A stretch of 26,291 nucleotides of DNA from a virus (Duplodnaviria > Caudoviricetes): the IMG/VR virus record IMGVR_UViG_3300036786_000003, positions 1 through 26,291 of that record. The stretch is one strand, 5' to 3'. Shown here in pieces: positions 6,920 through 7,024 of this stretch. The notes beneath the pieces are model-generated. The model was not told the origin of the DNA. It worked only from the letters and a program-made list of their open reading frames with translations, and did no database searches. Position numbers and translations under genes: made by a program. How positions within the stretch are numbered: the stretch's first letter is position 1; each line of letters opens with the position of its first letter.

Positions 6920-6925
6920 TTTGCG

Positions 6926-7002
6926 CGCGGAGTAGAGCAGCCCGGTAGCTCGTCAGGCTCATAACCTGGAGGTCGCGAGTTCGAATCTCGCCTCCGCACC
7001 CA
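6926..7002 (+). tRNA. Initiator tRNA-fMet (anticodon CAT), 77 nt, encoded CCA
   Basis: CGCGGAG TA GAGC AGCCCGGTA GCTC G TCAGG CTCATAA CCTGG AGGTC GCGAG TTCGAAT CTCGC CTCCGCA C CCA. Full cloverleaf with a C1:A72 mismatch and A11:U24 pair (initiator hallmarks) and A29-U41 as in alphaproteobacterial initiators. Confidence 0.95.
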
Positions 7003-7024
7003 GATCGCTTAACCAGAGGAAGAC

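Follow-up and report, generated by a model that had tools for sequence, protein, structure and literature searches.

An initiator-type tRNA gene directly behind the major capsid gene of a Mu-like phage, at a position that recurs in a few other Mu-like phages

The reason why phages carry tRNA genes has been an open question for a long time, and most work on it concerns large lytic phages with clusters of tRNAs; structured RNA in the gap behind the major head gene of Mu-like phages is represented by the Mu-gpT-DE RNA motif. That a phage tRNA can rescue by dosage has been published for other systems; according to the available text of PMC11555353, the tRNA-Tyr of T5/SP15 (against retron-Eco7) and tRNA-Lys (against PrrC) supplement a host tRNA by strong expression, as we propose for the locus described herein, but these genes have their own strong promoter and lie in tRNA clusters of large lytic phages, whereas no target defence has been identified here. 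Solitary tRNA-Met or tRNA-fMet(CAU) genes are described in 15 of 25 phiLM21-like prophages in the available part of PMC12429752. The tRNAs of these prophages, of Sinorhizobium phage phiLM21 and of Rhizobium phage RHph_TM3_3_3 share A6-U67, A9 and G57 with ours and are likewise solitary genes of the late region, but they stand at the start of the late operon of integrase phages (after an antiterminator and before an HNH or terminase gene), whereas ours lies inside a Mu-like head operon. Similarly, the Mu-gpT-DE motif (RF03012) and the post-capsid hairpins of relatives are structured RNAs in the same gap, while the element that we describe is a tRNA. Small Mu-like phages almost never carry tRNAs, yet we found seven that hold a single start-type tRNA in the same gap.

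The analysed stretch (the window) is a whole virus record of 26,291 nt from a soil phage, which begins inside the portal gene and lacks the Mu-type early region. Its Mu-type genes follow the canonical order on one strand (portal, F, protease, cement, capsid, gp36, gp37, sheath, tube, baseplate), and the order of the structural genes from portal, F, protease and capsid through gp36, gp37, sheath and tube to baseplate places the phage in the Mu-like class. The features around the tRNA are the following.

4168..5968, + strand: head protease/scaffold ORF and cement gene, upstream in the same gene run (phrog_976, phrog_673, PF09956)
5975..6919, + strand: major capsid protein gene, 314 aa, stop codon TGA at 6917-6919 (phrog_1005, E 6e-90; PF03864)
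6917..6925, + strand: 5' leader of the tRNA, made of the stop codon and a 6-nt spacer; 8 of 9 bases pair in register with 6999-7007 (predicted, post hoc)
6926..7002, + strand: initiator-type tRNA-Met(CAU), 77 nt, encoded CCA at 7000-7002 (ARAGORN, Rfam, fold, alignment)
7003..7024, + strand: 22-nt trailer, its first 5 nt complementary to the leader, with an SD-like AGAGG at 7015-7019 and no hairpin
7025..7198, + strand: gp35-like ORF, 57 aa (labelled by position; weak DUF7210 match below the cut-off)
7217..7666, + strand: Mu gp36 head-tail adaptor (PF07030, E 1e-35; phrog_195)

The capsid protein matches annotated major head proteins of RcapMu, RR1-B and BcepMu at 36-45% (tblastn), and its closest relative (P0002) is 83% identical. 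Homologues of the gp35-like ORF come after the capsid gene in relatives as well, and the true start of the head protease is probably near 4402; we use the labels gp35-like and Mu-like early region on the strength of position and profile names. Since no sigma-70 promoter consensus was found in 5400-8800, the tRNA would be co-transcribed with the capsid gene, which agrees with what the sequence-only reading had deduced from the anatomy of the locus. A Stellaceae metagenome-assembled genome (MAG) contains a stretch (L111) identical to the window over 6942 nt; the portal gene was not found in this MAG, but two Mu-type repressor-transposase blocks lie on other contigs (G001:C228 and G001:C39; L724, L725), unlinked to the window, and either of them could be the missing early region of this phage. 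As separate observations, the MuF minor head protein (1667-2908, + strand) has at its C terminus a predicted RNase domain, PBECR2 (E 4e-20), and a 723-aa ORF after the tail genes (23445-25616, + strand) encodes a laminin-G/concanavalin domain and, behind it, a long repetitive region rich in Ala, Ser and Arg.

The tRNA had been described as an intact tRNA-fMet, complete with cloverleaf and CCA, 6 nt after the capsid stop codon, and our analyses bear this out: ARAGORN calls tRNA-Met(cat) at 6926-7002 on the + strand, Rfam RF00005 matches with 59.4 bits (E 1.1e-10), and the minimum-energy fold is a cloverleaf, while the tRNA by itself gives an uninformative fold z-score of only -0.88. The initiator features are intact, namely the unpaired C1xA72, the pairs G2-C71, C3-G70 and G4-C69, A11-U24 (purine11-pyrimidine24) and the CUCAUAA loop. 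Moreover, the anticodon stem pairs A29-U41/G30-C40/G31-C39 are the same in 29 of 29 initiator copies from the Stellaceae family, and a first A-U pair in this stem is the normal alphaproteobacterial form according to the available text of PMC5389676. C1xA72 is the major formylation determinant, and A73, G2-C71, C3-G70 and G4-C69 are minor ones, as given in the accessible part of PMC9976931; the discriminator of our tRNA is C73, so that A73, a minor and non-universal determinant, is absent. Judged by these features, the tRNA appears to be a member of the bacterial initiator tRNA family: with the alphaproteobacterial type it has in common all of the features listed, the 77-nt length and the CCA, and it differs by ten substitutions (C73 included), by being phage-encoded and by its place in a head operon. 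An elongator tRNA-Met or a lysidine-type tRNA-Ile2 was rejected, as the two other CAU tRNAs of the MAG differ from it at 29 and 39 positions (ungapped) and the family initiator at 10.

The MAG's own initiator was not among its 34 tRNA matches (30 typed; the bin is incomplete), and the 29 best-matching initiator copies from 151 sampled genomes of the Stellaceae family stand in for it as the reference; one copy (L292) comes from an unpublished genome (G143), and the result is unchanged without it. Against this stand-in, the alignment that had been proposed as a check showed that the tRNA is not identical to the host type: the ten differences from the commonest family initiator are G6A+C67U, A51G+U63C, G52A+C62U, G9A, A43G, A57G and A73C. 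Six of them compensate each other in three pairs, and every stem pair is preserved, an outcome reached by chance in 1% of trials with 7 random stem changes and in 4% with 10 random changes. The differences that the sequence-only reading had listed (A6-U67, U27.G43, the GCGAG/CTCGC T-stem and C73) are thus real with respect to the 29 copies, although G9A and A57G had been overlooked. The only change in the anticodon arm is A43G; in its loop and at the 29:41, 30:40 and 31:39 pairs this arm is identical to that of the family initiator.

The C73 pattern matches in 11 of 400 other alphaproteobacterial genomes. Among these chromosomal initiators, 6 of 14 matches come after 23S and 5S rRNA genes, with rRNA linkage in three genomes; one genome (G279) has four rRNA-linked copies, all with C73 (L607-L610), and no A73 initiator copy was found in five C73-bearing genomes, G279 included. 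We rejected C73 as a sign of decay or as a phage-specific trait, because it occurs in these rRNA-linked housekeeping initiators; by the same comparison, C73 seems unusual but workable in initiators and does not appear to exclude membership in the family. The window combines C73 with G-1, as in a tRNA-His-type G-1:C73 identity, but this pairing does not appear to be a shared feature, as G-1 is present in only 4 of 27 viral C73 CAU tRNAs. Separately, we noted that host initiator genes at G102:C3:1557505-1557832 and G149:C5:5879-6103 adjoin one or two copies, about 40 nt long, of their own 5' half.

A scan of viral sequences for the A6/A9 form of this tRNA gave at least 120 stretches (about 270 estimated), 89 of them distinct. 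The nearest viral tRNA among the matches listed (L378) has 6 differences, and A6-U67, A9, G57 and the T-stem type are common to both. The tRNAs of L378, L327, L346 and L368 sit before an HNH gene, followed in L378 by terS, and phiLM21 and RHph_TM3_3_3 carry the same kind of tRNA after a NusG-like antiterminator; the phage-borne CAU family is usually found at the start of late operons. Hence, the window tRNA likely came from a phage pool rather than from a fresh host capture, and if so, most of its differences are poor evidence of selection in its place behind the capsid gene. Read in this way, the flagged changes, including the compensatory ones, would be mostly inherited from the phage tRNA family and are no demonstration of selection here.

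The sequence-only reading had called for a survey of tRNAs behind the capsid genes of Mu-like phages, and this survey showed the arrangement to be rare yet recurring. Among 227 loci with related capsids, 221 of which have at least 200 nt after the stop codon, a tRNA directly follows the stop only in L111, which is the same phage; none of the 220 other loci with such downstream sequence has one (low-score ARAGORN calls at a relaxed threshold were disregarded, the nearest lying 285 nt after the capsid stop in L129). A tRNA is in position in 1 of 77 loci with gpT-type capsids, this one being the query itself, and a gp36 search blind to tRNAs in 401 alphaproteobacterial genomes found one in 1 of 29 other prophage loci (L697, CAU). 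No CAU tRNA occurs anywhere in the 89 whole Mu-like records of the capsid-side set; what these records do contain is three canonical tRNAs close to their ends, which likely belong to host flank, and three weak tRNA-like matches. The latter (24-32 bits) lie at L731 1499-1575, L730 1501-1584 and L732 1501-1574, those of L731 and L732 being 2-3 kb upstream of the capsid gene on the opposite strand. From the tRNA side, scans for C73 CAU tRNAs gave 35 stretches (27 distinct), and with broader scans 270 distinct CAU tRNAs were collected overall. Six further Mu-like phages carry different CAU tRNAs in the slot between capsid and gp36.

L465: 17 nt after the Mu gpT capsid gene, before gp36
L498: 62 nt after the gpT capsid gene, before gp36; no encoded CCA
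L468: 7 nt after the gp35-like gene, before gp36
L466: after the gp35-like gene and one more ORF, before gp36
L349, 2498-2572: overlapping the end of the gp35-like gene, the ORF's last codons and stop forming the acceptor 5' strand; before gp36
L697: after the gp35-like gene, before gp36; CAU, found without a CAU pattern

Thus, four of these six tRNAs follow the gp35-like gene and two (L465, L498) the capsid gene. Additionally, a CAU tRNA in L020 lies 5 nt behind a protease-capsid fusion; no gp36 match was found for that phage. The seven slot tRNAs differ pairwise at 11-25 positions, and the capsids of their phages fall into two families that are at most 44% identical, while closer capsid relatives (59-84%), including an 84%-identical relative of L465, have no tRNA in the gap. 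Separate gains are the simplest reading of this pattern, with repeated loss as the alternative. All seven tRNAs keep the CAU anticodon, G2-C71, C3-G70, G4-C69, G30-C40 and the full cloverleaf, and 1:72 is paired (U-A or A-U) in five of them. A transposase domain is found in the same record or 20 kb away in four of the other slot phages. Since each of the seven has a close relative without the tRNA, they provide natural with/without pairs, and one genome (G536) contains both a prophage tRNA and the host initiator; the slot is, therefore, one clean locus for telling apart tRNA supplement, nuclease escape and mRNA punctuation.

The position itself was assessed in 168 virus records picked by the tRNA motif only (171 solitary-CAU loci of 246 distinct loci, of which two were left out and two share a record). 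A gp36 match is present in 16 of the 168 records, and in 5 of these the tRNA precedes it by 79-633 nt on the same strand, which gives a binomial P of 9e-4 assuming that the gap is 1 of 20 usable slots. In the other 11, with weak gp36 matches, the tRNA lies elsewhere: in 8 at 2.2-2.5 kb on the other strand, while 3 were judged by similar flanks only, and in L323, the annotated one of the 11, it precedes the head protease and capsid genes. These 11 phages (L318, L323, L329, L330, L335, L341, L343, L376, L408, L412 and L414) form an observation of their own: they carry a CAU tRNA on an initiator scaffold, in most cases with an altered loop ending in UC, which apparently heads a divergent head operon (shown for L323).

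We postulate that the gene supplies a working initiator tRNA, made together with the capsid mRNA, that tops up the pool of start tRNAs; we put the probability of this reading at roughly 0.55. The tRNA would be transcribed from the late head-operon promoter, released from the capsid transcript by RNase P and 3' trimming with the tRNA-processing enzymes of the host, charged by MetRS via its CAU anticodon and formylated via C1xA72, G2-C71 and C3-G70. The benefit would arise when host initiator tRNA runs short late in infection, either because of demand or because a tRNA-attacking defence has to be outrun by dosage. Likely, the gap is used as a natural boundary of the head operon, behind the most abundant message, where insertion is tolerated. 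The shared CAU anticodon, the conserved pairs and the place behind either the capsid or the gp35-like gene fit high late expression better than a fixed cut site. Against the supplement, the arrangement is rare and most Mu-like phages do without it, 1:72 is paired in five of the seven slot tRNAs, L498 encodes no CCA, and 11 of the 16 gp36-bearing records have their tRNA at another place; moreover, C73 would cost the tRNA a minor formylation determinant and the N73-U294 pairing with RNase P, which is lost with C73 according to the available text of PMC10465520, and an RNase P cut 6 nt after the stop codon would leave the capsid mRNA without a 3' structure. A role in self-immunity to the phage's own MuF-PBECR2 predicted RNase was considered and is not supported by the distribution of the domain, which is present in 26 of 47 tRNA-less records of the window's capsid family and in 1 of 42 gpT records, and was not found in any of the 4 gpT-type slot records tested.

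Alternatively, the main role of the tRNA may be in cis: in place of a post-capsid hairpin, it would serve to process or stabilise the transcript and cap the 3' end of the capsid mRNA; pairing of the stop codon and spacer would then slow RNase P, and 3' cutting would lower the message for the downstream neck and tail genes. Such a reading draws on the structured gaps of relatives: of 176 distinct relatives, 47 have a perfect stem of at least 9 bp in the first 70 nt behind the capsid stop, whereas the coding control shows 4 such cases in 176 and shuffled sequences predict 6.2. A U-tract accompanies just 2 of the 47 stems, and the window has no hairpin outside the tRNA. It also draws on the predicted helix in which the stop codon and spacer pair with C73, the CCA and the trailer; at 8 of 9 bases this is the highest value among 244 CAU tRNAs, adds -7.5 kcal/mol and has a chance probability of about 6e-4. 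Because leader pairing with N73 and C74 hinders the interaction of the RCCA sequence with RNase P RNA (PMC10465520, available part), slowed maturation would be predicted. Furthermore, a hairpin just 5' of the tRNA in L465, L498 and L697 would protect the mRNA after an RNase P cut. However, the helix was noticed post hoc in a single case, is absent from the other slot tRNAs and is lost, as is the entire cloverleaf, once 280 nt or more are folded; hairpin and tRNA coexist in 4 of the other 6 slot phages, and 129 of 176 relatives have no such stem at all. Any isotype could punctuate a transcript, yet L697, found without the CAU pattern, is also CAU. The earlier proposal of tRNA punctuation, which set the ratio of capsid to minor proteins by a cut between them, is therefore left with the gap hairpins and a helix particular to this window in its favour, while its fixed cut between capsid and gp35 is not shared, given the four tRNAs that follow the gp35-like gene; we regard the cis-acting reading as rather unlikely. 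Two related candidates were rejected: a switch based on sequestration of the tRNA's 5' strand by the final capsid codons does not stand out from synonymous resampling (40% of the resampled sequences fold equally well), and Rfam gave no match to Mu-gpT-DE in the window, where the tRNA alone matched, nor in 20 capsid-relative loci. We also speculate, as an unlikely combination of supplement and cis element, that transposable phages repeatedly and independently recruited the initiator tRNA as a dual-use module, a stand-in for the hairpin as 3' cap and a start tRNA, released only when a ribosome terminating on the capsid stop codon melts the helix between stop codon and CCA; were this so, the supply of start tRNA would be tied to capsid translation.

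It had also been suggested that the initiator is nuclease-resistant; in this reading, its altered sequence would withstand a host nuclease or modifier of tRNA-fMet (VapC or AtaT type). An alphaproteobacterial VapC does cleave tRNA-fMet (PMC8522696, available text), the prophage copy in G536, compared with the one initiator match of its host, is altered almost exclusively in the D loop and the anticodon arm (C32U and A38C are among the changes), and U29-A41 in four slot tRNAs and C31-G39 in one depart in the same arm. In the window copy, however, nothing indicates resistance, its anticodon loop and lower stem pairs being of the host type with only A43G changed; the anticodon arm of L465 is fully host-like, no PIN/VapC match was found in the MAG (an incomplete genome), and phages generally avoid encoding tRNA-fMet where VapC-LT2 targets it, as stated in the available part of PMC10264068. 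Escape of this kind is quite unlikely, and still less is to be said for a recently inserted, selectively neutral passenger in what would be the one late intergenic space tolerant of insertion. The patchy distribution, with the tRNA-less 84% relative of L465, suits a passenger, as does the finding that, among the sequences reachable, the window phage has no tRNA-bearing homologue except L111; but all seven copies keep the full cloverleaf and the formylation pairs, and neither the first 200 nt behind the capsid stop (227 + 80 loci) nor the surroundings of gp36 (30 loci) yielded any other isotype. This reading is very unlikely. Finally, it would be scarcely credible that the gene is left over from an att site, was captured with host DNA or results from an assembly that joined two sequences through the tRNA. 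Admittedly, no single piece among the contigs listed spans the whole tRNA: the 5' junction is on a contig of run X1 (which may be the source run) that extends over 5400-6964, and the 3' junction on one of run X2 that extends over 6939-7659. Both have 0 mismatches, however, and the A6 and U67 changes, which lie on opposite sides of the overlap, pair with each other; L111, a separate public assembly although possibly of the same data, agrees with the window over the 6942 nt. In agreement with the earlier view that this is not an att remnant, the gene is whole and internal, with phage head genes in canonical order on both sides, and it is closer to phage tRNAs (6 differences) than to family initiators (10).

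In a search of literature listings that covered few subscription papers, we found no report of a tRNA in the capsid-gp36 gap of Mu, and the available text of PMC8541194 shows none there. Start-type phage tRNAs in late regions and structured RNA behind Mu head genes are both known; the tRNA described here is ordinary in kind, real and intact, and it is its recurrent position in Mu-like phages that apparently has gone undescribed. At another late-gene boundary, L448 (1168-1242) and five near-identical stretches carry a C73 CAU tRNA directly at the stop codon of the terminase large subunit gene, with a 0-nt gap.
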